From Acutalibacter intestini (GTDB lineage: Bacteria; Bacillota; Clostridia; Oscillospirales; Acutalibacteraceae), in contig NZ_JAWXXL010000008.1 of the NCBI RefSeq assembly GCF_034334985.1, positions 65,041 through 89,040 of the forward strand: 24,000 nucleotides of DNA. Reading direction: 5' to 3'. The stretch's first letter is position 1; each line of letters starts with the position of its first letter. Shown here piece by piece: positions 3,486 through 18,163 of this stretch. The position numbers were made by a program, and so were the translations under genes. The notes below the pieces were generated by a model, which saw nothing but the letters and a program-made list of their open reading frames with translations, had not been told where the DNA came from and made no database searches.

Positions 3486-5014
3486 GATGGGATTTCCTCC
3501 GTAAGCTCCAGACCGCAGTGCAGCCGGAAGGTCAGTTTATTGCCTGCCGTGGGGATGATTTTCTCTACTATCTCGTCAAATTGGTCAATGTCAAACTCTG
3601 TGGGCACACCCGGCCAACTGGAAAGAATGGCCTGCAATTCCTCCAGCTTTTCCATAGCTGAGTGGGATTGCAGGCCATGTAGTTTTTTGTTTCGCTCTGC
3701 TGACAGCTTTTTCCGCTGGGAGGTAAGGCTTTCGTTCTGGATACGGAACTCGTCCGGGCTGATGAAACCCTTGCTGCTGAGTTTTTGCAGAGTGAGGGAT
3801 TTGTCATTAAGAGCGGCGATGGATTGGTTCAGCTCGAAGAGCTTGGTTTCGACAGTATTTTGACAATACTCTACTTCCATCAGCAGCCCACAAATCCCCG
3901 AAAGCAGTTGTTCATAGCAGAGAAATAGTTTTATGTTGAAATTTGCAATTGTCGTGCATATCGTTTCTTCTCTAAAGCGATAGGGCGAACAGGTGTCTGA
4001 GCCGTTCGCTCTATTGGGACAAATCCAATAAGATTTATCATTCGCTTGTAAGTGCCTAAAGAATCTGCCACAATCAGGGCATACTATTTTGTGCGTAAAT
4101 ATATGTCTCTTACGATTCGAATTACCGTTTTTGGATTTTAGCATAACCTGTGTGAGCTCAAAATCTCTTTTTGATATAATTGGAGGGTGTGAATTTGCAA
4201 CATAGTATTGTGGGCATTCGCCTCTATTTTTCCGTTTATAGTGCTTTAGAGAATCAGCCGTATAATGTTTTTGCAGTAAAGCATCGCCAATGTACCTCTC
4301 GTTATCTAAAAGCTGACGAACCGTTGAATACAGCCACTTTCTTCCGTGATGTGCCGTGATTCTTTTTTCATTCAGCCTCATAGCTATCTTTCCTATACTC
4401 TCGCCAGAAAGATATAATTTGAAAATATTTCTAACAATTTCTGCTTCTTCTGGGACGATTTCAAGTTGACTGTTAGATAACTTGTATCCATATGGAGTAC
4501 GTGTTCCGAAAAATGTGCCGTTCTCCATTCTTTTTTGATAGCTCCACTGTATGTTCCTAGATATTGACAGGCTCTCCTCCTGCGCCGCCATAGCGTACAT
4601 GGTGAGCTGCATCTCTCCAAGCACCTGGGAGGTATCAAAGCCCTGCTCCTCAAAAACAACGACCACGCCCAAGTCCTTCAGCTCGCGCGTGGTCTCTAAC
4701 AGCTCTGTTGTATTTCTGGCAAACCGGGACACGGATTTCACCAGCACCCGCTGGATCTTCCCCTCCCGGCAGTCTGCCAGCATCCGCTTGAACTCGTCCC
4801 GCTTGTCGATGCTGGTGCCTGTTATGCCCGCATCGGCATATAGGTCGTACAGCTCCCAGTCGGGGTTGTCGTTTATCAGCTTGGTGTAGTAAGCAATTTG
4901 AGAGTGATAGGAGTTGAGCTGGTCCGCTGAATCAGTGGATACCCTGCAGTAAGCCGCAACGGATTCCTTTTCGCTGGGCAGTACTATGGGGTCTATTCTC
5001 TGCACCTGCAGCAT
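3482..5014 (-). CDS. Large serine recombinase.
   Basis: VAAYCRVSTDSADQLNSYHSQ, KSVSRFARNTTE, TPYGYKL, DNERYIGDALLQK, CPDCGRFF...WICP zinc ribbon. ATG 5014 lies about 10 nt after AAAGGAGA; the ORF-track start GTG 5023 abuts the SD and is less likely. Confidence 0.93.
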   Translation of the reverse strand: MLQVQRIDPIVLPSEKESVAAYCRVSTDSADQLNSYHSQIAYYTKLINDNPDWELYDLYADAGITGTSIDKRDEFKRMLADCREGKIQRVLVKSVSRFARNTTELLETTRELKDLGVVVVFEEQGFDTSQVLGEMQLTMYAMAAQEESLSISRNIQWSYQKRMENGTFFGTRTPYGYKLSNSQLEIVPEEAEIVRNIFKLYLSGESIGKIAMRLNEKRITAHHGRKWLYSTVRQLLDNERYIGDALLQKHYTADSLKHYKRKNRGECPQYYVANSHPPIISKRDFELTQVMLKSKNGNSNRKRHIFTHKIVCPDCGRFFRHLQANDKSYWICPNRANGSDTCSPYRFREETICTTIANFNIKLFLCYEQLLSGICGLLMEVEYCQNTVETKLFELNQSIAALNDKSLTLQKLSSKGFISPDEFRIQNESLTSQRKKLSAERNKKLHGLQSHSAMEKLEELQAILSSWPGVPTEFDIDQFDEIVEKIIPTAGNKLTFRLHCGLELTEEIPS

Positions 5015-5085
5015 CTCTGTCACTCTCCTTTCGTCTGGTTACCAACACACTACCACACCCGGCCCCGAAAATCCATTCACGAATG

Positions 5086-5235
5086 TCACCGAATGTACTC
5101 CCGGTCAGGGTGCAGGATTTCGGCGTTGTACCTACTGGCCCGCGCGCGTTCTTCTTCGTTGATGGCTCCCTGTTCCACCAGGAAATCCAGGGCCTTTTGC
5201 AGAAGATAAAACTTGACGTTATTCTCTTGGTTCAT
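5086..5235 (-). CDS. Small hypothetical protein (49 aa), translationally coupled inside the recombinase cassette.
   Basis: Found by hand; it is below the ORF-track size cutoff. Translation: MNQENNVKFYLLQKALDFLVEQGAINEEERARASRYNAEILHPDREYIR. Its ATG overlaps the stop of the upstream gene (ATGA at 5232-5235). Confidence 0.5.
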   Translation of the reverse strand: MNQENNVKFYLLQKALDFLVEQGAINEEERARASRYNAEILHPDREYIR

Positions 5236-5615
5236 AGCATCTGCCCTCCCATCTCTATATTATCGGCGGCTTGCTCCGCAAGCACATCCGGCAAGGTGCA
5301 AATATTCTCTCTTACAAGGCACAGTCCTTTCCCGCACTGTGAAAGCTCCTGGCCTATCTGGAGTATCCCGCGAATATCCCCACCGAATCGGGAAATACTG
5401 ACCGCCGCCAGCACATCGAAGGTGTCCTGTTCTACGGCGTTGTGTACCAGCTCCAGCAGTTCATCTCTGCCGTTGCCAGTCACCAACGTTGTTCCCACAA
5501 TCGTCAAATCATGCTCAGCGCAAAAGCGCTCCAGCTCCGTCTTTTGCAGTGCCAGATGGTCGCTTGCGTCTGCACTCCAGCCGTTTGCCACCCGGCAGTA
5601 TAACCATGCTCTCAT
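5232..5615 (-). CDS. Resolvase-type N-terminal domain protein with Ala in place of the nucleophilic Ser (predicted catalytically dead).
   Basis: MRAWLYCRVANGW aligns with the (A/L)YCRVSTD block of the two full-length recombinases here but reads RVA instead of RVS. AAVSISRFGGD aligns with KSVSRFGRN. There is no recombinase or zinc-ribbon domain. ATG 5615 is preceded by AAAGGAA; the ORF-track start 5699 adds 28 non-homologous residues. Confidence 0.7.
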   Translation of the reverse strand: MRAWLYCRVANGWSADASDHLALQKTELERFCAEHDLTIVGTTLVTGNGRDELLELVHNAVEQDTFDVLAAVSISRFGGDIRGILQIGQELSQCGKGLCLVRENICTLPDVLAEQAADNIEMGGQML

Positions 5616-6091
5616 AACTTCACGTTCCTTTCTGTTTTTCTGCTCATGATACACAGGCGGGGATAGATACAGTTCGCCTATCCCCGTAGCGTCTATCATG
5701 AAAAATAGAAATCTGATTTTAGTTCTCTGGCCATATTTGCCCTGCGCCCCCGGCCCCGGGAATGTATCGGACGGATGCTGGCTAACACCCTCATGGTGAT
5801 CTCAACCCCGCGCGGTTCTCGCCCGGCTGCCCCCATTGCGTGAGTCTGTGGCTGGACAGAAGTTCTCAGCCTCCTGCTGGTCCTCGCCGGGATGGGGCCC
5901 GCCTATCCCCTGGGCCAATCGGCCCGCTGGCTTGCAGTCAGAAGGTGATGTATCCGATACATTGCGTATTTTGTTGTCAAAGTCCGCAAGAGCTACAGAG
6001 GGCGTTTCCGGGGTGAATTATGGCCTTTTGGCATCCCCGGAAAATGTCCCTCTATATATTCCGTACATTTTCGGGGCTAAAATTGCCCCCC

Positions 6092-6511
6092 TCAAGAAAA
6101 TTTCTCGCATATTTTTCTGAGGGCAACTTCTCCGCGCTCTATACTCCGGGATATTGTTGCTGGGTTACAGCCTTCTGAACGGGCAATTTCAGCCTTGCTC
6201 ATACCCAAAAAGTAGTAGGCAATAAGGCGTGACCGCTGCTTTTCCGGCAAGGACTGCAAACCCTTATATAGAAGCTCTCTCATATTGCTCTGCTCCAGAA
6301 TTTCCTCCGGGAGCGGTCCTTCTGCCGGGAACTCCCGAATCTCATTCATCAGTTCCAGCGAGTACATGGCCTTGTGGCGGTATGTACGGATGCGCAGAGC
6401 ATCCTCGGCCCGGGCAAGCTCTTGCAGGAGGTCAGCCACCTCATCGGGAACTTGTACCATAACATCGTGAGTGTAGTTCGGGTAGTATTTCCGCAGATTA
6501 ATTTCTTTCAT
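6092..6511 (-). CDS. Sigma-70 region-4 / ECF-like HTH regulator of the conjugative-transposon type.
   Basis: LPEKQRSRLIAYYFLGMSKAEIARSEGCNPATISRSIERG is a classic region-4 HTH. ATG 6511 follows GGAGAG with a 6-nt spacer. Confidence 0.8.
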   Translation of the reverse strand: MKEINLRKYYPNYTHDVMVQVPDEVADLLQELARAEDALRIRTYRHKAMYSLELMNEIREFPAEGPLPEEILEQSNMRELLYKGLQSLPEKQRSRLIAYYFLGMSKAEIARSEGCNPATISRSIERGEVALRKICEKFS

Positions 6512-6522
6512 TTTGCTCTCTC

Positions 6523-6560
6523 CAATCTGATTTTTGTTGTTGTGAACCAAAATCAGATTG
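6523..6560. promoter_or_regulatory. Perfect 12-bp inverted repeat (CAATCTGATTTT, 14 nt, AAAATCAGATTG) abutting the RBS of the sigma-like gene.
   Basis: Arms at 6523-6534 and 6549-6560, read directly. It could be an operator or a 5'-UTR hairpin. Confidence 0.4.
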
Positions 6561-6660: not shown

Positions 6661-6803
6661 TTATGATTCTGAAAGGCTAGGACACAAGAGGAAAGGCCCG
6701 GCCACTGCTGAAAAACGCAGTGGTCAGGAAGATGGCTTTAGCAAAACAGGATTGAATTGGCGAAAAGATAGGAAACCGAAAGTATCAATACCCATTTTGC
6801 TGA

Positions 6804-7400
6804 TTATTGTCCCTCCCTTTCATGGTAACGCTTTTTGAGAAAAAGGCATGGAAACTGGAGCGCTGCCGAGAGAATTAGTCCAGAGCCAACCGAAACAGCC
6901 GCCCAGGTCTGATGAAAAGCCGTCAGCACAGCGCATATGGCAATGGTGATCATGGATAGAACGATGGTAATTTTCTTAAAGACCTTCTTTTCGTTCTGCG
7001 TCAGCCTCCGGCCCTCTGAATCTATGGGGCTGAACACAATAATTTGAGCAGCCGCAAGTAGTAGCACCGCACACCACCAGCCATATCCCGATGTATCAAG
7101 GACCAAGCGTATTCCTAACAGGAATGCGGTTAATACTAAGGTTGACACGATGCCGCAGAGCACAGAAGACTGGAAGTGGAACCCTCCGCAAAACTTGCGG
7201 ATCAAGATAAAGGGGATAATCAGCAGAATCCCCTCTACAACCATGTGGAGGAACATGCTGATAATCAGCACCAGACCCAAAGGACACAGAGTGAAAAGAA
7301 AACTGTAGATGCCGTACTCGTAGAGTTCCACGTCACTAGCAGAAATGGCTCCTGCCTGCAGGAGCCATTTTGCAGTGACGGCGGCTAACCGCTTGATCAC
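6804..7400 (-). CDS. agrB: AgrB-family autoinducer-processing membrane peptidase.
   Basis: Polytopic membrane protein with IRKFCGGFHFQSSVLC. The His, and a Cys 7 residues later, have the same spacing as the catalytic His/Cys pair of S. aureus AgrB (RRHAHGAHAPSSFWC, from memory). GTG 7400 overlaps the agrD stop (GTGA). Confidence 0.88.
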   Translation of the reverse strand: MIKRLAAVTAKWLLQAGAISASDVELYEYGIYSFLFTLCPLGLVLIISMFLHMVVEGILLIIPFILIRKFCGGFHFQSSVLCGIVSTLVLTAFLLGIRLVLDTSGYGWWCAVLLLAAAQIIVFSPIDSEGRRLTQNEKKVFKKITIVLSMITIAICAVLTAFHQTWAAVSVGSGLILSAALQFPCLFLKKRYHEREGQ

Positions 7401-7552
7401 TTGAGCTTGCTGAACCGGCGCAGGGTCTCGGGGGCTTTGGGCTGGAATACAACGCAAGAAGAGGCTGAATTGGCGCCCACAAACAGTACTGCAGATAAGA
7501 AAAAAGCGGTAAGCCCAGCAAGACGGGAAACGGCAGCTTTAATAGTTGTCAT
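7397..7552 (-). CDS. agrD: AgrD-type cyclic (thio)lactone autoinducing-peptide precursor, 51 aa.
   Basis: MTTIKAAVSRLAGLTAFFLSAVLFVGANSASSCVVFQPKAPETLRRFSKLK: a hydrophobic leader, a single Cys followed by C-x4-P-x2-PE, and a charged tail. GGAGG lies 8 nt upstream of ATG 7552. The gene sits immediately upstream of agrB and overlaps it. Confidence 0.8.
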   Translation of the reverse strand: MTTIKAAVSRLAGLTAFFLSAVLFVGANSASSCVVFQPKAPETLRRFSKLK

Positions 7553-7583
7553 TGAGATGACCTCCTTGTTATATGATAAATTT

Positions 7584-7655
7584 ATTATAATACATCTCAG
7601 CAAAAAAAGATAGGGCCTTTGCATGAACGGTTAATAATCAATTAAAAATGGTATT
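7584..7655 (-). promoter_or_regulatory. agrD-agrB promoter with paired LytTR-type boxes.
   Basis: Minus strand reads AATACCATTTTTAATTGATTATTAACCGTTCATGCAAAG, gccc, TATCTT (weak -35), 17 nt, TATAAT. ACCGTTCAT fits the LytTR 9-mer consensus [TA][AC][CA]GTTN[AG][TG]. A second ACC-box sits exactly 21 bp upstream. Confidence 0.55.
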
Positions 7656-7820
7656 TTTTGGAGAAAAAAGCCAAAATACACTTGTTTGAATGTGAAAGTT
7701 CGTTATAAAACAAGAAAAAGCAAAAAGCACACATTGCAGTGTGTAGTTAAATTATAATTTGTCGTTTTCTCATTCCAACCATGCTAAAATATGTGTATGC
7801 CTTTAGGAAAGGAGAAACTA

Positions 7821-8150
7821 ATGGAATTCAATCGAGCTGAGGTGGGTCGCAGGATAGCAAAGCGGCGTAAGGAATTGGGCGTAAAACAAAATGTGCTTGC
7901 AGAGAAACTGGGGTATCATAAAAATCATCTCTCCGGAATTGAACACGGTCGGATTGCTCCGAGCATGGATTTGTTTGTAGGAATATGCAAGGAACTAAAT
8001 GTGTCTCCGAACTACCTACTAGAGGGTGCCATGCACCCAGAAAATGTTCCTCTTGACATTGTGGCTGACATAAACAGATGCAGGGATGAGGATAAGGAGG
8101 TCATCGCAGAAATCGTTAAAATCTACGTTGACAAAGCTGAAAAAACGTGA
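7821..8150 (+). CDS. XRE-family HTH transcriptional regulator.
   Basis: IAKRRKELGVKQNVLAEKLGYHKNHLSGIEHGRIAPSMDLFVGICKELNVSPNYLL. ATG 7821 follows AGGAGA. Confidence 0.9.
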   Translation: MEFNRAEVGRRIAKRRKELGVKQNVLAEKLGYHKNHLSGIEHGRIAPSMDLFVGICKELNVSPNYLLEGAMHPENVPLDIVADINRCRDEDKEVIAEIVKIYVDKAEKT

Positions 8151-8175
8151 CATCCATGCACAAATAAGGTATAAT
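8147..8175 (+). promoter_or_regulatory. Sigma-A-like promoter for the response-regulator/kinase pair.
   Basis: GTGACA (8147-8152), 17 nt, TATAAT (8170-8175), overlapping the end of the XRE gene. Confidence 0.45.
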
Positions 8176-8199
8176 ATATCTTGAGGAGGGATGTCTCCA

Positions 8200-8916
8200 A
8201 TGAGGATAGTGTTCTGTGATGACGATGTAACCGTTATGGATAAGCTGGAGAAGTATCTTCGGGCATATTTCAGTGAGAATAAATTGAAACAGCCTGAGTA
8301 CGAAGCTTACATCAATGGAGAGGAATTACTGAATTCAGACAAGAGAATTGATATAGCTTTTCTTGATGTGGAGATGCCAGGTATAGACGGTATCACAGTT
8401 GGAGCTAGGTTAAAGGCCCGGTTTCCCTATGTGAAAATCATAATACTTACGTCATTTTCGGACTACTTGGACGAAGCTATGAAATTTCATGTGTTTCGCT
8501 ACTTATCAAAGCCGCTTGAGAAAAGTCGCTTATATAGAAACATGAAAGAGGCATTGTATCAAATCAGTGTTGATACAAAACCTGTGTTGATTGAAACCGC
8601 CGATGAGTCCGTCACAAGATTTGCCGATGAAGTGATTATGGTAGAGGCAAACAAGCACAAGGTGAAAGTTTTTACTGTGGATAAGGTATACGATTCCGTT
8701 CAACCGATGAAACATTGGGAAACTCTTTTGGAAATAGGAAGTTTCTACCATACCCATCGCAGCTACATTGTAAATATGAAGTTTGTTCGCTCCTTCGATG
8801 CAACTACACTCAAGATGGGTTCACCAAGCGGTGAGAACCATCGGGCGTATATGGCCCGCAGAAAGTATCCAGGATTCAAGAGTGCATATGTGCGGTTTCT
8901 GGAGGCGATGAAATAA
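8200..8916 (+). CDS. LytTR-family response regulator (AgrA-like).
   Basis: Receiver domain (MRIVFCDDD..., IAFLDVEMPGIDG, IIILTS) followed by a LytTR DNA-binding domain (FYHTHRSYIVNMKFV). ATG 8200 lies 10 nt after GAGGAGG; ATG 8191 abuts the SD. Confidence 0.93.
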   Translation: MRIVFCDDDVTVMDKLEKYLRAYFSENKLKQPEYEAYINGEELLNSDKRIDIAFLDVEMPGIDGITVGARLKARFPYVKIIILTSFSDYLDEAMKFHVFRYLSKPLEKSRLYRNMKEALYQISVDTKPVLIETADESVTRFADEVIMVEANKHKVKVFTVDKVYDSVQPMKHWETLLEIGSFYHTHRSYIVNMKFVRSFDATTLKMGSPSGENHRAYMARRKYPGFKSAYVRFLEAMK

Positions 8917-10220
8917 TGCAAACAATCACCTTTATCTGTGTCTACTTAGTAGAGGGGATAACTGCTTGGCAGTATTTTTCCTCCCTGTTTATTCCGAAAA
9001 AGAAGCCCATCATACGAATTTCGCTATTTATACTTGGGTATGCACTCGGTTGTCTGCTATTCAATTTATCTATAATTTGGATTAATACAATTTTCTTTAC
9101 CCTGCTCAATTTATTACTGCTTAAGTCTTTCTATATTTGTTCCTGGAAAAGCTGCATTTATCATACTGTGTTGCTGACTTGCCTTACTTTAGGCACAGAA
9201 ATTCTCGTGGAGTTTCTCCTTGGAATGCTTTTCGGAGGGGCTGAGAAATATCAGGACAGCCTTCCAATTCTAGTTTTTCTCTGTGTTTTTAGTAAACTAC
9301 TCTATTACACACTGACAAAACTGTGCATCCGCCTTTCACCCAAATCATTGACAAATATACACGATGCAGGCCCCATCGCGCTTTTGCTAGGCAGTTTCTC
9401 GTTTTCAACGATTTTCATTCTGCTCATTATGGCGTACTCAGCGCTGTATTGTAATTTGCCGCCCTTTATTGAAACCTTGATGATGGTAGGAGCGCTGATC
9501 CTTCTTCTTTCTGCCTTGGCAATATTTGCAGGATATCAGTATAGTCAGAAGCTTAATAAGGAGAATCTAGAACTCCAGTTGATAAAGCAGAAGGATCAGG
9601 TGGAAGGAGAATATTTCAGTGCTCTTGAGGATCAATATGAACGTCAGCAGGTCCTGCTCCACGATTTACGGCGGCATCTTACTGCCATCAAAGAATTTGC
9701 GCTGGAGAATGAAGACCAACAGGTGGTGCACTATGTCTCCAATTTACAAAACCTCCCAGCGCTTCAGCGAAAGCTGAAATATTGTGAGAACCTAATGCTA
9801 AATGTGGTTCTAGCCCGTTATAAGGAACTAAGCGATGAGAAAGGCATCCAGTTTTCCGCAGATGTCCGAGATGTAGATATGGATTTTTTGGCGCAAAACG
9901 ACATAACCGCTCTGTTCGGGAATTTGCTGGAGAACGCTGTGGAGTCTGCTGAAAATTCAGAAAAGCCCTATATTGAGCTTATAATTGGCTCCAACGGAGA
10001 TACACATTCTGATGCTAAGCTCTTTGTTTCCCTGACAAACTCCTGCGACAATGAGCCACTTAAAGACAGTGCCGGTAATTTTCTGACACACAAACTAAAC
10101 AAGGAGTGGCATGGAATGGGGCAGAAAAGTATTAAGAGAGCCGTGAAGAAATATGGCGGTACTTTAGAACACCAATATTGCAAGGAAACTCATCTGTTCC
10201 ACACGTCCATTTTATTTTGA
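8916..10220 (+). CDS. AgrC-type (HPK10) sensor histidine kinase with GHKL ATPase.
   Basis: About 6 N-terminal transmembrane helices, H-box LLHDLRRHLTAI, N-box NLLENAVES, G-box HGMGQKSIKRAVKKYGG. ATGA overlap with the regulator gene. Confidence 0.9.
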   Translation: MQTITFICVYLVEGITAWQYFSSLFIPKKKPIIRISLFILGYALGCLLFNLSIIWINTIFFTLLNLLLLKSFYICSWKSCIYHTVLLTCLTLGTEILVEFLLGMLFGGAEKYQDSLPILVFLCVFSKLLYYTLTKLCIRLSPKSLTNIHDAGPIALLLGSFSFSTIFILLIMAYSALYCNLPPFIETLMMVGALILLLSALAIFAGYQYSQKLNKENLELQLIKQKDQVEGEYFSALEDQYERQQVLLHDLRRHLTAIKEFALENEDQQVVHYVSNLQNLPALQRKLKYCENLMLNVVLARYKELSDEKGIQFSADVRDVDMDFLAQNDITALFGNLLENAVESAENSEKPYIELIIGSNGDTHSDAKLFVSLTNSCDNEPLKDSAGNFLTHKLNKEWHGMGQKSIKRAVKKYGGTLEHQYCKETHLFHTSILF

Positions 10221-10241
10221 GAAAGTACACTGTGATATGAA

Positions 10242-10285
10242 CACCCCCTTTTTGACCATGCTTGTCAAAAAGGGGTGCTTTTTTG
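10242..10285 (+). terminator. Rho-independent terminator of the regulator/kinase operon.
   Basis: CACCCCCTTTTTGAC, catgctt, GTCAAAAAGGGGTG, followed by CTTTTTT. Confidence 0.8.
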
Positions 10286-10357
10286 CAGAAAACCCACTGC
10301 TTTCTAGGGCTCCCGGCGCTTTAACACACTAAAAATAAATCGATACAAGAATACTTA

Positions 10358-10429
10358 TATACCAAAATATGCCGTTTTTTAACCGTTCGTGCAGAGCTAC
10401 TTGAAAAGGAAAACCGCTTGTGCTAAACT
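10358..10429 (+). promoter_or_regulatory. Promoter of the Cys-rich secreted-protein gene, with the same LytTR-box layout as the agrD promoter.
   Basis: TATACCAAAATATGCCGTTTTTTAACCGTTCGTGCAGAG, ctac, TTGAAA (-35), 17 nt, (TGc)TAAACT (-10). The proximal 18-mer matches the agrD-side 18-mer at 16 of 18 positions, with identical offsets to the -35 and -10. Confidence 0.55.
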
Positions 10430-10627
10430 ATGGGCAGTTGAACGAAACCCGAACCGCAGACCGGTTTTCATTCAATCAGCGCTGGCCAGCGTGATTTTCT
10501 AAAGGAGTTTGAGTCGCGTCTCTGCGGGAGCGTTTCGACTCCTGTCCGCCCCGGCACTTGTGCGTGGGATATAAACATAAGGCAAGTCTTTTGCTTGCGT
10601 GATATCAGAAGAAAGGAAGTCATCAAT

Positions 10628-10969
10628 ATGACAAAAAGATTTGTTTCTCTGCTCATGGCTTTGATGCTGATTATTGGCATCTTTGCAGTACCGGCTTTGG
10701 CGGCCCAAGGCGATGACGGCATCGAGCCCCATACAAGAGTTTGGTGTGCGAACTGCGGAGCCCTTGATGGAAATCAACAGTATCGGTGGGATAGGGTTGA
10801 CTGGAGCGACCGTACCGTGGCCTGTACAATGGGCGCGGGCGGATGCGGCGGCGATTATACCGCAAGGAAGTATACGGGACTTCGGTGTTCAAGCTGCCTC
10901 TATGTGTATAATAGTAAGCACGTTGATACTGGCAAATTTTGCCCTGGCTTTGGCGGCTATTACTATTAA
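10628..10969 (+). CDS. Small secreted Cys-rich protein (113-aa precursor), function unknown.
   Basis: Signal peptide MTKRFVSLLMALMLIIGIFAVPALAAQG (AxA site). The mature part has 7 Cys, including CANC and CSSC knuckles, and a Gly/Tyr-rich C-terminus. ATG 10628 follows GAAAGGAAG. Confidence 0.75.
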   Translation: MTKRFVSLLMALMLIIGIFAVPALAAQGDDGIEPHTRVWCANCGALDGNQQYRWDRVDWSDRTVACTMGAGGCGGDYTARKYTGLRCSSCLYVYNSKHVDTGKFCPGFGGYYY

Positions 10970-11063
10970 AATATAGCCCGATATATAAAGGGCGCATGGC
11001 CATTCTAGTCTTTCTATAAAAAACTGCATATACACATAATTAAAACAAAAATGGAAAGCATTG

Positions 11064-11110
11064 GGCAGAATCCGATTAGGCACACGATTGATTCTGCCTA
11101 TATGCTATTT
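11064..11110 (+). terminator. Hairpin, possible terminator after the Cys-rich protein gene.
   Basis: GGCAGAATC (11064-11072) pairs with GATTCTGCC (11090-11098), followed by TATATGCTATTTT. The U-tract is weak. Confidence 0.35.
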
Positions 11111-11124
11111 TGGGAGGTTTAACG

Positions 11125-12474
11125 ATGAAAACAAGGATTACAAAAAGAATAATCCATGCTCTTTTGTTGATTAATGCTCTTTCCGTTTTTACATTCTTCT
11201 ATGGATGTGAAAGTATGGAAAATAAAAGTGAGGAGAAAATTGATTCAACGTCTTCTGAAGGTTCTCCTATGGAAGTCCTCGAAATCTGCATTGACTCTCA
11301 GATCGATCCTTCTGTAATGGAATCGAGTTTTCTCGAATCAATGGAGTTGGTTCCCGGTTATCAAGAAGACTTTACCGTAAGCGTTTCCAGCCTTCCGGGG
11401 GATGTAGTTTTGTCAGAACAGGATTTGAACAATAGGGAAAACGCGCTTGTACGAATTAAAACGGAAATAATGGCCGGCGGCGGGCCGGATTTATTTATAT
11501 GCGTTTGCCCCAGGCCGAGCTATGGCACAGAGCGGACAAATCGTAAAGGACTATTTCCCTATCCCGAATCAGCTATGGAGTCAAATCTCTTCCTTGATTT
11601 AAGCGCAGTTATTTCACAATCGAAATTGATTGAATGGGATAACCTGGTTCCACAAATAATGGATGTCGGAAAGTACAAAGAGAATCAATTTATACTACCC
11701 TTGACCTATACATTTGGAATAACTGGCTTCGAGCGTAATTTGCACAAAATGGCAAGCGTTTCTCCGATGACACGATTTGACCAGCTCAACAGTAAGAATG
11801 GTAGCATCCGGCAGGCTGGCCATACAAATGAAATTTTTTCCGTATTTGGTAGAATCGCGGACTATGAAAATGACATCTTAACTTTCACAGAAAACGACTT
11901 ATTGACCTGCATAAAGGATTATTGGAAACCGTTGGATTTATCAGAGGATGAATTTCCTGATACTCCCGCAGGACTCATGGTTGGGTTGCCAAATATGCTA
12001 AATGACAAAGGAAAGATGAGGTTTGGGCAAAATTCCCCTGAATATATTTTTATCCCACAGTACAACACAATCAGTGGTGTTACCGCATATATAACGTCAT
12101 TTATAGCAGTTAATCGGAATACGCAGTACCCGAAAGAGGCACTCGCCATCATTGAAATCCTCATGAGTAAGGAAGGGCAGCAGAACGCCCCATTGTATGG
12201 TGACTTGTACGGGATGCCCACCCACATGGAAGTTGGTAGCGAGGACTCACCTGCCTATAGCTCTTACGGTCCATGGTATATGAACGATGCAAATTTCAAT
12301 GAGTTTTGCAAGTTGCGTGGCCAAATAAACGCGGTTAACTTCTTCACTCCATTGGAGGCGGAAATCGACAAAATGCTGTGGACCTGTTATGAAACCGAAC
12401 TGACAGATGTCGAAATAGAAGAGCTTGTATCAGACTCTTACCGTGTTATGACTATGATGATTGGGGAAAGCTGA
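11125..12474 (+). CDS. ABC-transporter extracellular solute-binding lipoprotein (carbohydrate/CUT1-like).
   Basis: Signal peptide ending FFYGC (lipobox-like). About 450 aa, placed immediately upstream of two CUT1-type permeases. GGGAGG lies 7 nt before ATG 11125. Confidence 0.8.
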   Translation: MKTRITKRIIHALLLINALSVFTFFYGCESMENKSEEKIDSTSSEGSPMEVLEICIDSQIDPSVMESSFLESMELVPGYQEDFTVSVSSLPGDVVLSEQDLNNRENALVRIKTEIMAGGGPDLFICVCPRPSYGTERTNRKGLFPYPESAMESNLFLDLSAVISQSKLIEWDNLVPQIMDVGKYKENQFILPLTYTFGITGFERNLHKMASVSPMTRFDQLNSKNGSIRQAGHTNEIFSVFGRIADYENDILTFTENDLLTCIKDYWKPLDLSEDEFPDTPAGLMVGLPNMLNDKGKMRFGQNSPEYIFIPQYNTISGVTAYITSFIAVNRNTQYPKEALAIIEILMSKEGQQNAPLYGDLYGMPTHMEVGSEDSPAYSSYGPWYMNDANFNEFCKLRGQINAVNFFTPLEAEIDKMLWTCYETELTDVEIEELVSDSYRVMTMMIGES

Positions 12475-12475
12475 C

Positions 12476-13342
12476 ATGATATTCCGTTTTAAACTTTCTC
12501 TACAAGGCTACCTCCTAATCACCCCCCTCCTCCTCGGCTGCCTCCTATTCTACGCCATCCCCTTCGTGCTGGTGGTGCAATACTCTCTCAGCACCGGCAG
12601 CGGCGGGGCCAGCAATTTCATCGGCTTCATCAACTACCAGGATGTGAGTGCCAACGGCATGTTCACCCTGGCCTTTGGCAACACCATGCGCTTTCTTGCG
12701 GCGGCCCTGCCCCTCATCATGGTGCTGGCCTACGCCATCGCCCTGCTCATGCAGAAACACGCCAACAAGCATAAACTGCTCAAATCCGTGTTCCTGTTCC
12801 CCTACATCATGCCGGTGGTGGGCGCGGTCATTCTGGTGGAACTGCTCTTTGCCGACAGTGGCCTAATTCCCAGCATTGCCAATGCCCTGGGCCTGCCCCT
12901 GGTAGACTGGTTGGGCGGACCCGCGGCGTTTGGCGTGGTACTGCTGCTCTATCTCTGGAAGAACACCGGTTACAGCGTGATTCTGCTGCTGGCCGGGCTT
13001 GTTACCATCCCGGAGGAGCAATACTCTGCCGCCGATCTGGACGGAGCCTCCGACTGGCAGAAGTTCTTCTACATCACCACGCCGCAGATGTGGTACTCGG
13101 TGTTCTTCGCCATCATCTTCTCGCTGATCAACGCCTTCAAGTGTTTCCGGGAGATTTTCCTCATCGGCGGCACCCATCCCAACGAAAACATCTACATGCT
13201 CCAGCACTTCCTCAACAACAGCTTTGAGAATCTGAATTACGCTAAGCTGTCCGTGGCCTCGGTGCTGCTCTTGGTTGTGGTTCTGGTAGTATTTGCCGTG
13301 TTCTACGGGTTCGTTCGCAGGAAGGAGGCGTTCCGGGCATGA
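12476..13342 (+). CDS. Carbohydrate ABC-transporter permease (MalF/UgpA-like).
   Basis: Six transmembrane segments and an EAA loop, IPEEQYSAADLDGASDWQKFFYITTPQM. Confidence 0.92.
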   Translation: MIFRFKLSLQGYLLITPLLLGCLLFYAIPFVLVVQYSLSTGSGGASNFIGFINYQDVSANGMFTLAFGNTMRFLAAALPLIMVLAYAIALLMQKHANKHKLLKSVFLFPYIMPVVGAVILVELLFADSGLIPSIANALGLPLVDWLGGPAAFGVVLLLYLWKNTGYSVILLLAGLVTIPEEQYSAADLDGASDWQKFFYITTPQMWYSVFFAIIFSLINAFKCFREIFLIGGTHPNENIYMLQHFLNNSFENLNYAKLSVASVLLLVVVLVVFAVFYGFVRRKEAFRA

Positions 13343-14112
13343 AGAAAACTTACAAAATCAGCGAGGCAATTGCGCTTTTATTGGCAGCTATTTCTGTTTT
13401 ACCCTTCTGTTATGTGTTGGCGCTCAGCTTTCTGCCTGCTGGCGGCGGCATCACATTTGACTATTATTACGATGTGTTCCTGGGTTCGCCCCAATACCTG
13501 CTGCGGTTCTGGAAAAGCATGGGCATCTGCCTGTGCATCGTGGCGGGACAGCTTGTGGTATCCGTACTGGCGGGGTACGGGTTTGCCAAGTGTGAGTTCA
13601 AGGGACGGGACACCATCCTTTTCGTGCTCATGATTCTCATGGTCCTGCCCCTGCAGGTTACCTTGGCCCCCAACTACATTATGCTTGACAAATTGGGCCT
13701 GCTGGATACCTACTCAGCCCTAATTCTTCCGTCCATCTTCATGCCCCTGGGCACGTTCATCCTGACCCAGAGTTTCAAGTCCGTCAGCGACGACATCATT
13801 GACGCCGCCAAGTTGGACGGCTGCGGTCTGTTCCGTCTGCTGACAAAAGTCATCCTGCCCATGAACACCAGTGGGCTGGTCTGCGTCACGCTGCTGTCGT
13901 TCTTAGACGGATGGAATATGGTAGAACAGCCCATCGCCTATATCAAGGACTTTCTTCGCTACCCCCTCTCGGTGGCACTGGCATATGTGCCGCCCGCTGA
14001 CCCGACGTTGCAATTGGTCTGCTGTATTCTGGTGGTGCTGCCGCCCCTGTTCCTGTTTACCTATTTTAACCGGGAACTGGTGGAGGGCATCGTCCTGGCG
14101 GAGGTGAAATGA
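13339..14112 (+). CDS. Carbohydrate ABC-transporter permease (MalG/UgpE-like).
   Basis: EAA loop DDIIDAAKLDGCGLFRLLTKVILPM. ATGA overlap with the upstream permease. Confidence 0.92.
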   Translation: MKKTYKISEAIALLLAAISVLPFCYVLALSFLPAGGGITFDYYYDVFLGSPQYLLRFWKSMGICLCIVAGQLVVSVLAGYGFAKCEFKGRDTILFVLMILMVLPLQVTLAPNYIMLDKLGLLDTYSALILPSIFMPLGTFILTQSFKSVSDDIIDAAKLDGCGLFRLLTKVILPMNTSGLVCVTLLSFLDGWNMVEQPIAYIKDFLRYPLSVALAYVPPADPTLQLVCCILVVLPPLFLFTYFNRELVEGIVLAEVK

Positions 14113-15221
14113 TGAGGAAGATAGACAAAAACGACCCGTATGAGAAGTATTTGTTTAGTGACCGGCCGCCCTGGAAACCCACCACACTAAAGCAGAAAGC
14201 CTTGTGGGTATCCGCCCTGGTCTTTTGGCTGATTGCCGCCTGCACCCTTTTCGCTGTTAAAAATCAGGAGCTGATGACCCCGCAGGTTACCACTGTGAGT
14301 GCCGAAAACAGCTACAACTCAGGTTCCCCGGCAAAGCTGCCTCTTGACTGCCTGCAGTTGGACAGCGAAGGTGGGATGCACCTTTACGAGATTTATGAGG
14401 GTACCGGCTGGGAGGCTGGGGTGCGGGTCCGGGAGGTACAGGGGTTCTCCTTGGACGAAGACAATGTACTCCTGGACAATGGCGGCTGGGGGGAGTATGT
14501 CCAGTATGCCTCAAAGACTCTGACCGATGGCGAGCTGGTGGAGGTGATTCGGGGCGGGGAAAAAGCCGCTGACCACTGGCTTGCCGTGTTCCCGGAGGAC
14601 GCGCCGGAGCCAGATCATCTCCCTAGTGGCGTGGAGATCGTGGCCCAGGACGGCAACGCCCTACTGCTGTCCGTGGAATCTGACCAGCAGCCCTTCATGG
14701 AGGGCCGGGCCAAGAGCCTTGTGCCGGAGCTTTCCGGGGCCAGGATCTATAGCTTGTCTGCCATGGAGCAGTTCCAGGGCAATTTCATCTGCATGGGCCT
14801 GCTGCTCATGATATTTGTCATCCTGTTCTGGATGTGGGGCTACGCCTGGTATGAGAATCAGCTTGACAAAAGGTATCCCCGGATGTGGCCCATGAGCGTT
14901 GGCATCAGCGTGGTGCTTTTGGGCGGCATAGCGGTGATCCTGCACTTTGTGAACCTGCCCTCCTCCCTGTTGCCGCCGGAGCAGATCACGGACCTGTGGT
15001 ATTACGGCCACGATTTTGGCCAGGCTTTCCCAGCCCTGGAGCGCTTTGGGGAGCAGTTTGAGAGAGGGAACCGGCTGGTTATAATGCAGACGGTCGCACT
15101 CTTTTGCAGTCTTGGGTTTATGGCCGTGGGCGCGGGGATCGGCTACCTGATTGCGCGGGTGGAAGAGTTTTATATGGAGGAGATCTGCGTTAAGAGGATG
15201 CGCCGGGGGGAATGGCGGTAA
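14109..15221 (+). CDS. Hypothetical polytopic membrane protein coupled to the ABC permeases.
   Basis: ATGA overlap at 14109-14112. One N-terminal transmembrane helix, an extracytoplasmic segment of about 170 aa, then 4-5 C-terminal transmembrane helices. No motif recognised. Confidence 0.7.
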   Translation: MMRKIDKNDPYEKYLFSDRPPWKPTTLKQKALWVSALVFWLIAACTLFAVKNQELMTPQVTTVSAENSYNSGSPAKLPLDCLQLDSEGGMHLYEIYEGTGWEAGVRVREVQGFSLDEDNVLLDNGGWGEYVQYASKTLTDGELVEVIRGGEKAADHWLAVFPEDAPEPDHLPSGVEIVAQDGNALLLSVESDQQPFMEGRAKSLVPELSGARIYSLSAMEQFQGNFICMGLLLMIFVILFWMWGYAWYENQLDKRYPRMWPMSVGISVVLLGGIAVILHFVNLPSSLLPPEQITDLWYYGHDFGQAFPALERFGEQFERGNRLVIMQTVALFCSLGFMAVGAGIGYLIARVEEFYMEEICVKRMRRGEWR

Positions 15222-15245: not shown

Positions 15246-15276
15246 GACGCCGCAATTTTTAGCGGCGCCCTTTTTT
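15246..15276. terminator. Bidirectional terminator hairpin between convergent genes.
   Basis: CGCCGC (15248-15253), aattttta, GCGGCG (15262-15267), then TTTTTT on the plus strand. On the minus strand the hairpin is followed by TCCTCCCCTTTTTC. Confidence 0.6.
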
Positions 15277-18163
15277 ACAGCCCATACTTTTTCTTAACAT
15301 ACTGGAGAAAATGCTCGATCTCATATTTCGCCTCATCGGGGAGTTTTCTTGCCGTTACCCACTTCGGGATGACAACGTGAGCCGTTCCTTCCTCCTGCCT
15401 GTGAAACGTCGCCTTTTCCCGCTCAAAGTCCAGCTTGAACAGCTTATAACCCTCCGTCACCCAAGCCTCCGCCATGGCGTTCTGGTCGGGCCGGGTGTAC
15501 CAGCGGGAGGTGTGCTTTCTTGCCGATGGGGATAGATCGCGGCCCAGGATCGTTTCAATCTCCTTAAATTTGAGGGTGATAGAGGCGTCGTTCTGTTTTG
15601 CAAACCATTTTTTCAAAGGCATGAACGGCCAGTTCGACCGTAGCGGACCAGGGGCTTTCTCTCTGGCATCCGGGCCGAGGGCAGTGGTCATCTCCTGCGC
15701 TCCATCCACCAGTTCCCTGTGAGTGTAAACGCTGACGTCTCCCAGCACTTCATGAACCGTCAGCTCGTTAGGTCTGCACAGCTCATGCACATAGGCAAAA
15801 TTGGAGGGCAGCGCGGGGCCTGTCGGGTCGATCAGCATCACTTCTCTGGGGTGGTCCGGCAGAATCGGCCTGCCGCAGTAGTAGCAGCGGCCTTGCTGGC
15901 GTTTCCATACTTCTTGATATTTTCCGGTTGCCCCAACGATATTTTTTCGCTCATGGCGGCTCTGAAAGTATTCTATATCAATGTAGGGATTTTTGTTCAG
16001 CAGAATTTTCTCGTAACACTCCACCAGCAAAGTTTCAGAAATCTTTCGGACACGCACACTCCTGTTGTGGGGCAGACTGTATACCGATTTTCCCTTTGAA
16101 TCTGTGTACCAATACTTTGCCCGTAGTTTCGGCGGGTTCATCCGAGGGTGCCGGGCCAAAGCCGCTTTCCACAGGCAGCTCTCCACCAGTTCATCAATCT
16201 CCCGGAACGCGGCCCTAGCGTTAGAGTAGTGGTGATAGGAGGCCCAGCCGGAGAGCTTGCGGTTGATAGAGTCTATCAGGTTCTTCTGAGAGCGATTGTG
16301 GGTGAGTATCAGCTCCTGCAAACCGGCCTTGATCCGGGCTACCGCCGATTGTGAGGGTGTGAGGTGTATATGACCGTTTTCCTTGACGTAATGTCGGGAG
16401 ATGAAATCAAAGCCCTGATAAACGGAAACCACCTTTGTTTTTTCTTCTGAGACCTGCAGACCCCGCTCCGCCAGAAAACTCCGGGTGATTCCTACCATCT
16501 TCTCAGCGTCCTCTCTGCTCTTTGCTGACAGGAAAATGTCGTCCGCAAACCTGACAAGATTTCCGTTCGCGTAATCAGAAACAGGCATACCATTATATAA
16601 GTGCTTGTATATGTACCCTTGCAGCCCGTCCAGTACATGATTTGCCATCATGGGCGAAAGGTTGGCTCCCAGCGATATGCCGGATTCTTCTTCCGGAAAC
16701 AACTCCCCGGCAAACACATGACCGGCGCGAAGAAATTCTCCCAACACTTTCTTATCCATAGGAATATGCTCCATAAGCCAAGTACGCTGTATGTTTGAAT
16801 AATATGCCTTTACATCTATGACAGCAACCCACTTGGGCGGATTTAGCCCCTGCAGGACTTCCAGAATGTAAGCGTGAGCGTCCAGTGCTGAACGCCCCAC
16901 TCGGAACGCAAAGGACTTCTTTTCTCCCCAAGCCTCCAACACCGGGGCCAGGGAAAAGCCGTAAAGTATCTGCATGGCCCGGTCAAAGTAGGTGGGAAGG
17001 CCATAGGTGCGCTCCCTGCCGGTTGGCTTGGACTTTACCTTAATATCCCGCAAGGGCTGGGCGTGGTAGTTCTTGGAGGTCAGCATGAGCGCGGCCCGCA
17101 TTTTCTCTCCAGGCGTTTTCCACTTGATACCATCTACCCCCGGCCCGGAATCGCCGCTGCACACCTTTCGTACTGCAAGCTGCTTGATTTCTGTCCGGCG
17201 GACTAACTGCATTTGCAGTGCCTTTATCTTCTCGCCGTCCCGCTGCTGTGCCGCCAATGCTATCACCTTTTGCAGGCTCGCCAGTATCTGCTCTGCGGCT
17301 GTCCAGTCCGTTTCCTCCCACAGCTCCCCCAGGAACGCATCGGGGAAGTCAATGGAGGGCCGCATGGCGCGCAGCTTGGAGCAATCGAACTTTTCCCCGG
17401 CCACATAGTTCAAGTGGATTTTCAGCTCAATGGGGCAGTGGTCAGAGCCGAAAATCTCCGTGTGATGTTCCACCCCGTGGATTCGTTTCGCCAGATTCCG
17501 GTCAACAAGAAAGTAATCCAGCCGCCAGCCATCATTCTTTGAACGCTTGTCAAAACGCTGGCTCCACCAGGTATAGGCCCCTTCCTGGTCAGGGTGCAGG
17601 AGCCGGAAAGCGTCCACGAATCCGCTGTCTAACAGGGTTTCCAGATTGTCCCTCTCCACTGAAATATATCCCTTTTCCTGGTCCTGGATGCGGGTGTTTT
17701 CCGGGAACACGTCTATGGCGCTGCGGGTGACATTGAAGTCCCCGCATATGATGACCGGCTTGTATTCTTTCAGTTTCTGTACGAAAACAAACAACGCCTC
17801 GTCCCACCGGCCGCGGTAGGCCCGACGTTCCGGGCTGTCCTGCGCGTTGGGGACATAGGCGTTGATAATATAAAATGCCTGGTATTCAAGTGTGATGATG
17901 CGGCCCTCCCGGTCCAGGCTCTCTTGGCCCAGGCCCATCCGCACATCCAGAGGTTCTTCCTTTGCCATCGTCAATACTCCGGCGTAGCCCTCCCGCTTCC
18001 CGGTTTCCCAATAGTGGCGGTATCCCGGCAGCACTTTAGGGCGGCGGTTGGTCCGAACCTCTTGCAGGCACAGGATGTCCGGCTGCAATGCCTCTATCGG
18101 TTCAAACCCATTTTTGTCTATGCAGGCCATAAGGCCGTTGACGTTCCAGCTTATGATTATCAC
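15275..18163 (-). CDS. Fusion protein: ExoIII/APE-type EEP nuclease, group-II-intron-like reverse transcriptase, X/maturase-like domain, degenerate HNH and a C-terminal extension (962 aa).
   Basis: aa 1-250: MIIISWNVNG, ILCLQEV, ICGDFNV, GWRLDYFLV, GSDHCPIEL (the full ExoIII motif set). aa 280-600: DWTAAEQILASLQ (RT0), GVDG, RTYGLPTYFDRAMQ, FAFRVGRSALDA, VIDVKAYYSNI, SLGANLSPMMANHVL, RFADDIF (codons at 16538-16549), EEKTKV..GFDFISRHY. aa 630-650: RKLSGWASYHHYS (X/GIIM-like). aa 759-797: CYYCGRP...EVMLIDP...SNFAYVHELC (HNH-like). The GTG start is supported by alignment to ExoIII N-termini (MK-ISWNVNG). Confidence 0.95.
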   Translation of the reverse strand: MIIISWNVNGLMACIDKNGFEPIEALQPDILCLQEVRTNRRPKVLPGYRHYWETGKREGYAGVLTMAKEEPLDVRMGLGQESLDREGRIITLEYQAFYIINAYVPNAQDSPERRAYRGRWDEALFVFVQKLKEYKPVIICGDFNVTRSAIDVFPENTRIQDQEKGYISVERDNLETLLDSGFVDAFRLLHPDQEGAYTWWSQRFDKRSKNDGWRLDYFLVDRNLAKRIHGVEHHTEIFGSDHCPIELKIHLNYVAGEKFDCSKLRAMRPSIDFPDAFLGELWEETDWTAAEQILASLQKVIALAAQQRDGEKIKALQMQLVRRTEIKQLAVRKVCSGDSGPGVDGIKWKTPGEKMRAALMLTSKNYHAQPLRDIKVKSKPTGRERTYGLPTYFDRAMQILYGFSLAPVLEAWGEKKSFAFRVGRSALDAHAYILEVLQGLNPPKWVAVIDVKAYYSNIQRTWLMEHIPMDKKVLGEFLRAGHVFAGELFPEEESGISLGANLSPMMANHVLDGLQGYIYKHLYNGMPVSDYANGNLVRFADDIFLSAKSREDAEKMVGITRSFLAERGLQVSEEKTKVVSVYQGFDFISRHYVKENGHIHLTPSQSAVARIKAGLQELILTHNRSQKNLIDSINRKLSGWASYHHYSNARAAFREIDELVESCLWKAALARHPRMNPPKLRAKYWYTDSKGKSVYSLPHNRSVRVRKISETLLVECYEKILLNKNPYIDIEYFQSRHERKNIVGATGKYQEVWKRQQGRCYYCGRPILPDHPREVMLIDPTGPALPSNFAYVHELCRPNELTVHEVLGDVSVYTHRELVDGAQEMTTALGPDAREKAPGPLRSNWPFMPLKKWFAKQNDASITLKFKEIETILGRDLSPSARKHTSRWYTRPDQNAMAEAWVTEGYKLFKLDFEREKATFHRQEEGTAHVVIPKWVTARKLPDEAKYEIEHFLQYVKKKYGL

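Follow-up and report, generated by a model that had tools for sequence, protein, structure and literature searches.

A 24,000-nt stretch of the Acutalibacter intestini genome (RefSeq assembly GCF_034334985.1, contig NZ_JAWXXL010000008.1, positions 65,041 to 89,040 of the forward strand) carries an agr-type quorum-sensing gene set, in which AgrB, AgrD, an AgrC-type kinase and a LytTR response regulator are identified, next to a gene for a small secreted cysteine-rich (Cys-rich) protein. This whole stretch is referred to as the window, and all coordinates given without a locus label refer to it. One promoter in front of agrD and another in front of the Cys-rich gene share a pair of boxes in the same arrangement, and this architecture is conserved in register across divergent alleles of the locus. 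Judged from sequence, we consider it likely that the locus forms an agr-type circuit in which a single LytTR regulator reads two activator-dependent promoters, and that the Cys-rich gene is a direct quorum-sensing output.

Two promoters with a shared pair of boxes

7584..7655, minus strand: agrD (autoinduction, P2-like) promoter, AATACCATTTTTAATTGATTATTAACCGTTCATGCAAAG gccc TATCTT 17 nt TATAAT
10358..10429, plus strand: putative output (P3-like) promoter on the Cys side, TATACCAAAATATGCCGTTTTTTAACCGTTCGTGCAGAG ctac TTGAAA 17 nt TAAACT

The agrD-side promoter consists of a distal 9-mer ACCATTTTT (7652-7644), a proximal 9-mer ACCGTTCAT (7631-7623), a nominal -35 TATCTT (7612-7607) and a -10 TATAAT (7589-7584), and the Cys-side promoter of a distal 9-mer ACCAAAATA (10361-10369), a proximal 9-mer ACCGTTCGT (10382-10390), a -35 TTGAAA (10401-10406) and an extended -10 TGcTAAACT (10421-10429). 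Both 72-nt stretches, with their hexamers and spacings, read exactly as quoted in the original prediction, and its match counts for the 39-mers (26/39) and the proximal 18-mers (16/18) are correct, as is its statement that the offsets from box to hexamers are the same in both promoters. The ATACCA box that it placed 21 bp upstream in each promoter (9+12 spacing) is present, and the pattern ATACCA-N14-TTAACCGTTC matches at these two places only. In both promoters the repeats follow a 9+12+9 layout and the proximal one stops precisely 10 bp short of the -35 position, as is classic for LytTR sites. The imperfect direct repeats bound by AgrA, [TA][AC][CA]GTTN[AG][TG], are spaced 12-13 bp apart and precede the -35 (PMC5600425); in a survey of operons under LytTR control, most spacers were 12 bp long and the repeats showed a strong preference for a position 10 bp upstream of the -35 (PMC6193735). 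The only LytTR protein among the open reading frames of the window is encoded at 8191-8916, between the two sites, as had been claimed.

Two points qualify this description. Agreement with the AgrA consensus, in the form given in PMC5600425, holds for both proximal 9-mers (9/9) but not for the distal ones, of which ACCATTTTT on the agrD side scores 7/9 and ACCAAAATA on the Cys side 4/9; the clade's own consensus differs, ACC(A/G)TTT. The distance from box to -10 is identical in both promoters, but TATCTT is hardly a -35 hexamer (1/6 against TTGACA) and is a position more than a hexamer, so that the robust shared feature is the distance from the proximal box to the -10. A perfect -10 without a usable -35, as in the agrD promoter, is typical of promoters that depend on an activator.

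The likeness of the two promoters is limited to the 39-mer: the hexamers differ, and the full 72-mers match at 35/72, an unexceptional value tied with unrelated places and no better than random sequence. This, and the weak match of the distal boxes to the consensus, favors a chance resemblance in AT-rich intergenic DNA. The 18-mer TTAACCGTTCRTGCARAG, allowing up to 3 mismatches, nevertheless occurs at two places only in the window, against a mean of 0.05 in shuffles, none of 100 of which reached 2. When the agrD-side 39-mer was slid over every position of both strands, the best non-self match among 48,000 positions was at 10358 (26/39; next best 22; mean 9.8, standard deviation 2.8; z = 5.8), and the same architecture is found in both promoters of several divergent relatives, described below. 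Chance is effectively refuted. A search for the 18-mer in 185,579 species genomes, a collection that does not hold the source genome, gave 33 single matches in unrelated taxa, approximately the number expected by chance, with none near agr genes.

The agr module and its relatives

6804..7400, minus strand: agrB, membrane peptidase that processes the autoinducing peptide (Pfam AgrB PF04647, 3.7e-31, 179/185 profile positions)
7397..7552, minus strand: agrD, 51-aa autoinducing-peptide precursor (NCBIfam TIGR04223, 30.2 bits, cutoff 19)
7821..8150, plus strand: XRE-family helix-turn-helix (HTH) regulator, first gene of the HTH-regulator-kinase unit (Pfam HTH_3, 1.7e-12)
8147..8175, plus strand: candidate box-independent promoter for the regulator and kinase genes, GTGACA-17-TATAAT (11/12, consensus match only)
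8191..8916, plus strand: AgrA-like response regulator with receiver and LytTR domains (Pfam Response_reg PF00072, 2.4e-16; LytTR PF04397, 6.8e-14)
8916..10220, plus strand: AgrC-like sensor histidine kinase (Pfam HATPase_c_5 PF14501, 8.1e-17)
10245..10275, plus strand: intrinsic terminator closing the HTH-regulator-kinase unit (12-bp perfect stem, then a T run)

agrB probably starts with the GTG at 7400, which overlaps the agrD stop (the mechanical open reading frame extends to 7457), and the protein is 80-92% identical to the AgrB proteins of relatives, which are 191-198 aa long. AgrD has the predicted ring CVVFQ, followed by PKAPE, and aligned relatives have the ring variants CIIHQ, SIIHQ and CMVHQ. 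The ATG of the HTH gene at 7821 is preceded by AAGGAG (the mechanical open reading frame begins at 7791), and the HTH protein is just approximately 40% identical between the window and relatives. The response regulator falls under the cutoffs of every NCBIfam equivalog (e.g. LytR, BtsR) and is thus a family member, not an orthologue of a named regulator. These genes do not form a single autoinduced operon in the style of agrBDCA: agrD-agrB is divergent from the HTH, regulator and kinase genes, the boxes lie on the agrD side only, and a separate promoter-like site is present at 8147-8175. The strong terminator at 10245-10275 separates the Cys-rich gene from the kinase gene, so the Cys-rich gene needs its own promoter. 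A search of a plasmid collection with 6800-11000 returned no match.

The gene order, agrB-agrD divergent from HTH-regulator-kinase, then a terminator, the Cys-rich gene, a lipoprotein gene, two permease genes and a gene for a 370-aa protein, is the same in every related locus with enough context (L007, L008, L012, L013, L015, L016-L019 and L022; the source of L015 is an isolate, Oscillospiraceae bacterium 42-9, GCA_041223885.1). The Cys-rich gene adjoins the agr module in all informative loci, including the distant L064. Between loci the regulator is 52-78% and the kinase 47-96% identical, and three allele groups can be recognized; the kinase allele groups of the relatives are 47-81% identical. 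The regulator and kinase of the divergent relatives are 47-54% identical to those of the window, and the intergenic DNA nearby can no longer be aligned; in a blastn comparison of the window with L007, similarity ends within agrD (7510) and returns only at 10418. The positions of the box motif persist in this DNA that blastn cannot align between allele types. Ten promoters from six loci (six Cys-side and four agrD-side), cut 80 nt upstream of the -10, align without gaps and show a distal [T/G/A]ACC box, a second [G/A]ACC box 21 bp on, the -35 position and the -10. The clade consensus of the boxes is tGACCATTTtGTATCGaTTTTtGACCATTTg, the spacer GTATCGaTTTT between them is likewise conserved, and TGCTAAACT of the output promoter is near-invariant in all relatives. 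The spacer, of which CGaTTTT is kept in relatives, may be part of the site or an aid to DNA bending.

A position weight matrix trained on the relatives' eight sites only was run over the window (47,924 positions) and ranked 7655-7617 first (22.0 bits) and 10358-10396 second (20.8 bits). No third box was found in the window with this matrix, the next score being 11.0 bits within a recombinase gene. The proximal 18-mers match better within a genome than across genomes (16 vs 7-10 for the window, 15 vs 11-12 for L019 and 13 vs 10-12 for L007). The Cys-rich gene had originally been called the output gene of the circuit; the retained two-box register, the first and second ranks of the two sites and the synteny support the claim, but "the" output should read "an" output.

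Several observations weigh against this reading. The Cys-side distal box scores just 4/9 against the AgrA consensus, and GCCGTTTTT (10371-10379), which lies between the boxes and 11 bp from the proximal box, scores 7/9; because it out-scores the nominal distal box, the geometry and occupancy of the Cys-side site are not settled. The promoters of the relatives are orthologous, so the matrix result owes part of its strength to common descent. The proximal boxes of the two promoters in L015 agree at just 9/18. Box sequences co-segregate with the regulator allele, yet they are physically linked to that allele. The promoter regions of L064 each have their own repeat with 21-bp spacing, and the two repeats are unrelated to each other.

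Alternatively, the shared element could be real yet serve as a binding site for the XRE-family HTH protein or some other factor, or be left over from a duplication or recombination of promoters, and the Cys-rich operon would then not be controlled by cell density. The XRE regulator is always encoded between both sites, and the spacer between the boxes is itself conserved. A palindrome, CCACAATATATTGTGG, lies in relatives on the ribosome-binding site of the HTH gene and again 25-30 nt upstream of the output-promoter boxes, making contact between the HTH protein and the promoter region very probable. XRE proteins are normally palindrome binders, however, and this candidate operator is a separate element outside the 39-mer. 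The 39-mer itself bears the LytTR signature, a direct repeat whose period is 21 bp and whose position is 10 bp from the -35 (PMC5600425, PMC6193735). The agrD-side promoter, lacking a usable -35, also calls for an activator. We therefore regard an XRE-bound or relic element as improbable.

The palindrome was located at 3011 and 5555 in L007, 2009 in L008, 3890 in L015, 651 in L019, 35 in L020 and 2525 in L022. It is absent from the window, where the HTH allele is approximately 40% identical and CACACATTGCAGTGTG is found instead at 7727-7743. Its placement suggests a candidate operator through which the XRE regulator would act as a second input to the output promoter in relatives.

With the LytTR regulator as the reader of both sites, AgrB would cut and cyclise AgrD to give the predicted CVVFQ thiolactone ring, and the AgrC-like kinase would sense the peptide and phosphorylate the regulator. 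We infer that a regulator dimer binds the two 9-bp direct repeats 12 bp apart, the proximal one 10 bp upstream of the -35 position, and induces both promoters. One site would drive agrD-agrB in a positive feedback loop, the role that P2 has in agr and the fsrB promoter has in fsr. The other, as the counterpart of P3 in agr or of ef1097/gelE in fsr, would drive a transcript with a 190-nt leader that encodes the Cys-rich protein and, through read-through of a hairpin, also the lipoprotein, the two permeases and the 370-aa protein. The regulator and kinase genes would be expressed from their own box-independent promoter, as is fsrA.

Natural variants of the locus bear on activator dependence. The output promoters of L012 (1820-1900) and L021 (approximately 1335-1414) have a 3-nt deletion in the spacer, a proximal box changed to GATATTTT with loss of the CC, and a perfect -35, TTGACA. 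Degenerate boxes together with a perfect -35 are expected when an activator-dependent promoter turns constitutive; these two look like such a switch and are consistent with activator dependence. L001 and L002, which correspond to window 7416-12736, are 100% identical to the window save for a clean 2,154-bp deletion of 8443-10596 that takes most of the regulator gene, the kinase gene, the terminator, the output promoter and most of the leader, leaving the Cys-rich gene behind a truncated regulator gene. L018 has another internal deletion in the regulator and kinase genes. From these deletions it appears that quorum-sensing-null variants circulate, as they also do for staphylococcal agr. The three deletion variants come from metagenomes.

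The output transcript, the Cys-rich protein and the hypervariable cassette

10436..10627, plus strand: 5' leader of approximately 190 nt with five to six predicted hairpins (RNAalifold, alignment of nine loci)
10628..10969, plus strand: secreted Cys-rich protein, 113 aa (signal peptide, Cys/His framework, family of approximately 220 clusters)
11063..11111, plus strand: hairpin with a T-rich tail between the Cys-rich and lipoprotein genes, candidate leaky terminator
11125..12474, plus strand: 449-aa lipoprotein with a solute-binding-protein (SBP) fold (profile against PDB 7x0o CbpC, 4.4e-18; single sequence, 5.6e-8)
12461/12476-13342 and 13339-14112, plus strand: two ABC-importer permeases (Pfam BPD_transp_1)
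14109..15221, plus strand: 370-aa protein, last gene of the predicted operon (67-94% identity in relatives)
15248-15267: bidirectional terminator after the 370-aa gene
10733..12502, plus strand: hypervariable cassette comprising the mature Cys-rich domain, the intergenic hairpin and the whole lipoprotein gene (blastn breakpoints, window vs L016)

The output transcript probably starts near 10436, and from the arrangement of the genes we infer that it probably extends over the whole five-gene operon to the bidirectional terminator. Every cassette type has a hairpin at the place of 11063-11111, with a differing sequence, which makes a short abundant transcript plus read-through plausible. In the leader alignment 94% of cells are paired, compared with 35-48% in slid controls, and compensatory change is seen at 8 pairs, which 2/500 shuffles also attained; one long hairpin pairs an internal AAGGAG with CUCCU. 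The leader is a candidate cis-regulatory leader.

These hairpins also bear on whether the output promoter serves mainly to make a regulatory RNA, with the leader, alone or with a short open reading frame, as an RNAIII-like effector and the Cys-rich protein secondary to it. The model for such an arrangement is delta-haemolysin, which is secondary to RNAIII. The paired and compensating positions of the leader, the T-rich-tailed hairpin after the short open reading frame in every cassette type, which would allow a short abundant transcript, and a promoter position that mirrors P3 in agr all point toward an RNA. The nucleotide identity of the leader (69-88%), on the other hand, only equals or slightly exceeds the synonymous-site identity of the permease gene compared (57-90%), the window leader folded as a single sequence is no stabler than its shuffles (z = -0.14), and Rfam gave no match for it at gathering and E-value thresholds. 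The leader is limited to the close clade while the protein family is widespread, and the intact Cys framework across approximately 220 clusters indicates that the protein is under selection. An RNAIII-like role of the leader is a weak possibility, and we think it unlikely that an RNA is the main product.

Two other interpretations of the leader were tried and rejected. It is not ultra-conserved, the synonymous-site comparison reducing that description to merely "not hypervariable". It does not contain a leader peptide gene: no start codon lies at a usable distance from the AAGGAG at 10503-10508, and alignment indels break any frame in the 5' untranslated region.

The Cys-rich protein, by reading, begins with a typical Sec signal peptide, MTKRFVSLLMALMLIIGIFAVPALA/AQ. 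Residues 1-35 (the signal peptide and GDDGIEPH) are conserved and residues 36-113 are hypervariable. Close homologues are few; a profile search of 1.84 billion representatives returned 220 clusters at E <= 1e-3, nearly all of 95-120 aa. The family consensus consists of a signal peptide, D(D/E)GI(E/M)P, CxxCG, approximately 20 residues, C, approximately 6 residues, HxH, approximately 10 residues, CxxCG, approximately 15 residues and C, in which CxxC(G)...CxxC(G) is near-invariant; the window protein is without the HxH and has one extra Cys. Pfam and NCBIfam scans of 42 members assigned no family, all zinc-ribbon matches being sub-threshold, and Pfam, NCBIfam and a fold search placed the protein in no known bacteriocin family. 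AlphaFold2 models were of low confidence (pLDDT 55 with 7 sequences and 63 with 28 sequences), and the best E-value for the model in a Foldseek search against the PDB was 0.33 (zinc-ribbon ribosomal proteins, cystatins), which is meaningless. The family is previously unannotated, and the novelty of the locus lies in this target, not in its regulatory design.

The cassette begins at codon 36 of the Cys-rich gene and ends where the first permease gene starts, and its flanks are conserved. In relatives the signal peptide is 78-100% identical, the mature Cys-rich part 25-42%, the lipoprotein 25-31% and the permeases 82-95%. L007 and L008 are exceptions, with both the mature Cys-rich part and the lipoprotein above 90% (lipoprotein 96% in L007). 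The lipoproteins fall into the groups {window, L007} at 96%, {L011, L015, L016} at 59-64%, and L022 alone, which mirror the Cys-rich groups and not the kinase groups {window, L016}, {L007, L015, L019} and {L012, L022}; cassette alleles shuffle independently of regulator and kinase alleles. The 370-aa protein had no significant Pfam or NCBIfam match. No ABC ATPase gene is present in the operon or elsewhere in the window; for CUT1-type importers, ATPases that are shared and encoded elsewhere are known.

The secreted product keeps its export signal but varies in its mature part, and a neighboring gene varies along with it; this pattern fits a bacteriocin and its immunity protein and also fits a ligand and its receptor. 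A cognate pair for strain-level interaction, formed by the Cys-rich protein and the lipoprotein as bacteriocin/immunity or private ligand/receptor, the two not being discriminated, is rated the most likely output function, tentative as it is.

Distant members of the family are found in other settings. In related genomes, three distant alleles (P0047, P0157 and P0165) are found at a single locus flanked by uvrA and a recD2-like gene; their first 38 residues are identical and their mature parts approximately 25% identical. An SBP_bac_1-like lipoprotein gene follows (448-456 aa, 45-56% identity among alleles), then paralogue fragments, with no permeases. Divergently upstream are genes for an HTH + TPR/RNPP_C regulator (315 aa) and a 71-aa secreted pro-peptide, an RRNPP-type quorum-sensing pair. 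The RRNPP-linked Cys-rich loci are L057-L062 (approximately 6636-9700 in L057). In L064 the Cys-rich gene (P0161) again comes after agrB-agrD divergent from HTH-LytTR regulator-kinase, and the genes downstream are unrelated. Through the RRNPP loci and L064 the family is linked repeatedly to peptide quorum sensing, and an SBP-fold lipoprotein is its usual companion. Between the window and the RRNPP loci the pairing of Cys-rich protein and SBP recurs at the level of the fold, not as orthologues. Homology of the window-type SBP to the SBP-like partners of the RRNPP loci was considered and rejected (nothing by BLASTP; 50% probability over 41 columns by hhalign), as was a shared box in L064 (27/85 matches anchored on TTGC).

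Putting the cassette and the distant loci together, a fuller account, possible though no firmer than the cognate pair itself, is a strain-discriminating two-component cassette of a new kind in gut Clostridia. It would join a Sec-secreted, metal-binding-looking Cys6His2 mini-protein with an SBP-fold lipoprotein that recognises it, either as immunity to a bacteriocin of a new class or as the receptor of a private ligand feeding the conserved ABC importer. The two would diversify jointly by cassette exchange and would have been recruited independently under agr/LytTR and RRNPP control (L057-L062).

Known systems, neighboring genes and significance

In its regulatory design the locus varies a well-known theme (agr P2/P3, or fsr). 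Like Staphylococcus aureus agr, the locus has AgrB, AgrD, an AgrC-type kinase and a LytTR regulator, paired imperfect 9-bp direct repeats, 12 bp apart, that precede the -35 of an autoinduction promoter and of a distinct output promoter (PMC5600425, PMC4227749), proximal boxes that fit the AgrA consensus at 9/9, and allelic (pherotype-like) divergence of AgrD and kinase. It differs in having agrD-agrB on one strand and the XRE, regulator and kinase genes on the other with an apparent promoter of their own, in boxed promoters that are 2.7 kb apart and not back to back, in a -35/-10 spacing of 17 nt compared with 18 nt (P2) and 20 nt (P3), in a regulator that also diverges between alleles (52-54%), and in a predicted output that is a secreted-protein operon and not RNAIII.

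The best functional analogy for the same box at an autoinduction promoter and at a secreted-protein gene is Enterococcus faecalis fsr (FsrABDC; gelE-sprE, ef1097/EntV), an agr-type system with FsrA sites upstream of fsrB, gelE and ef1097, the last encoding the Sec-exported precursor of a small disulfide-containing antimicrobial protein, a bacteriocin, and with constitutive expression of fsrA (PMC5454873). The two have in common LytTR sites before the pheromone-processing genes and the output genes and a regulator gene that is expressed constitutively, or, in the window, from an apparent box-independent promoter of its own. Unlike the output gene here, which is adjacent, ef1097 is unlinked (800 kb away); EntV has no sequence relationship to the Cys-rich family, the locus here has no accompanying protease gene, and fsr is without a hypervariable partner lipoprotein.

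Streptococcal blp/com and Lactobacillus pln (BlpR, ComE, PlnC/D) likewise couple peptide quorum sensing through a LytTR regulator to conserved direct repeats before each operon (PMC5600425 ref. 11, PMC6193735). They resemble the locus further in a hypervariable output cassette whose secreted products keep conserved N-terminal export sequences, vary in their mature parts and have cognate genes next to their own. The blp bacteriocin-immunity region is established as a cassette of this kind. In contrast to these systems, the pheromone here is an AgrD cyclic peptide and not a double-glycine-leader peptide, export relies on a Sec signal peptide, the 85-aa product contains six or seven Cys and is only a candidate antimicrobial, and the co-varying partner is a 450-aa SBP-fold lipoprotein in place of a small membrane immunity protein. 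The order lipoprotein SBP, permease, permease is that of CUT1-type ABC importers (MalFG-like permeases; CbpC, PDB 7x0o), but the operon is without an ATPase gene, the SBP is 25-31% identical between strains whose permeases are approximately 90% identical, and distant relatives carry the Cys-rich/SBP-like pair without any permease.

Beyond agrB, three or four serine recombinase genes, a pemK RNA motif (Rfam RF02913, 44 bits) and a sigma-70 region-4 protein gene (1015-5699, 5791-5863 and 6092-6550, all on the minus strand) suggest a mobile element, and in L007 an IS110 transposase gene occupies the agrB-flanking side as the recombinases do in the window. On the far side of the operon, 15275-18163 (minus strand) encodes a 962-aa protein that combines Exo_endo_phos (AP-endonuclease-like), RVT_N/RVT_1 reverse transcriptase, GIIM maturase (group II intron) and DUF7662 domains; the order endonuclease then reverse transcriptase recalls long interspersed nuclear elements (LINEs), and relatives carry parts only (a 187-aa DUF7662 protein in L011). 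Farther on, 20211-20924 (minus strand) encodes a 237-aa protein with the unusual fusion of an XRE HTH and a Spo0A C-terminal domain, near which lies a gene for a BlaR1-type M56 peptidase (21276-22430, minus strand).

Systems like agr are common in gut Clostridia and their targets are largely unknown; the locus offers a concrete candidate for a direct target with a defined predicted site, and the deletion variants and box-degenerate variants are natural controls. Co-variation of the mature domain and the lipoprotein between otherwise near-identical strains, together with the occurrence of the family under a second class of quorum-sensing regulator, is a signature of molecules of strain-level competition or recognition. 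If the proposed circuit is true, the Cys-rich proteins would be a new class of interaction factors under density control in the Oscillospiraceae, a gut family that is abundant and poorly studied.

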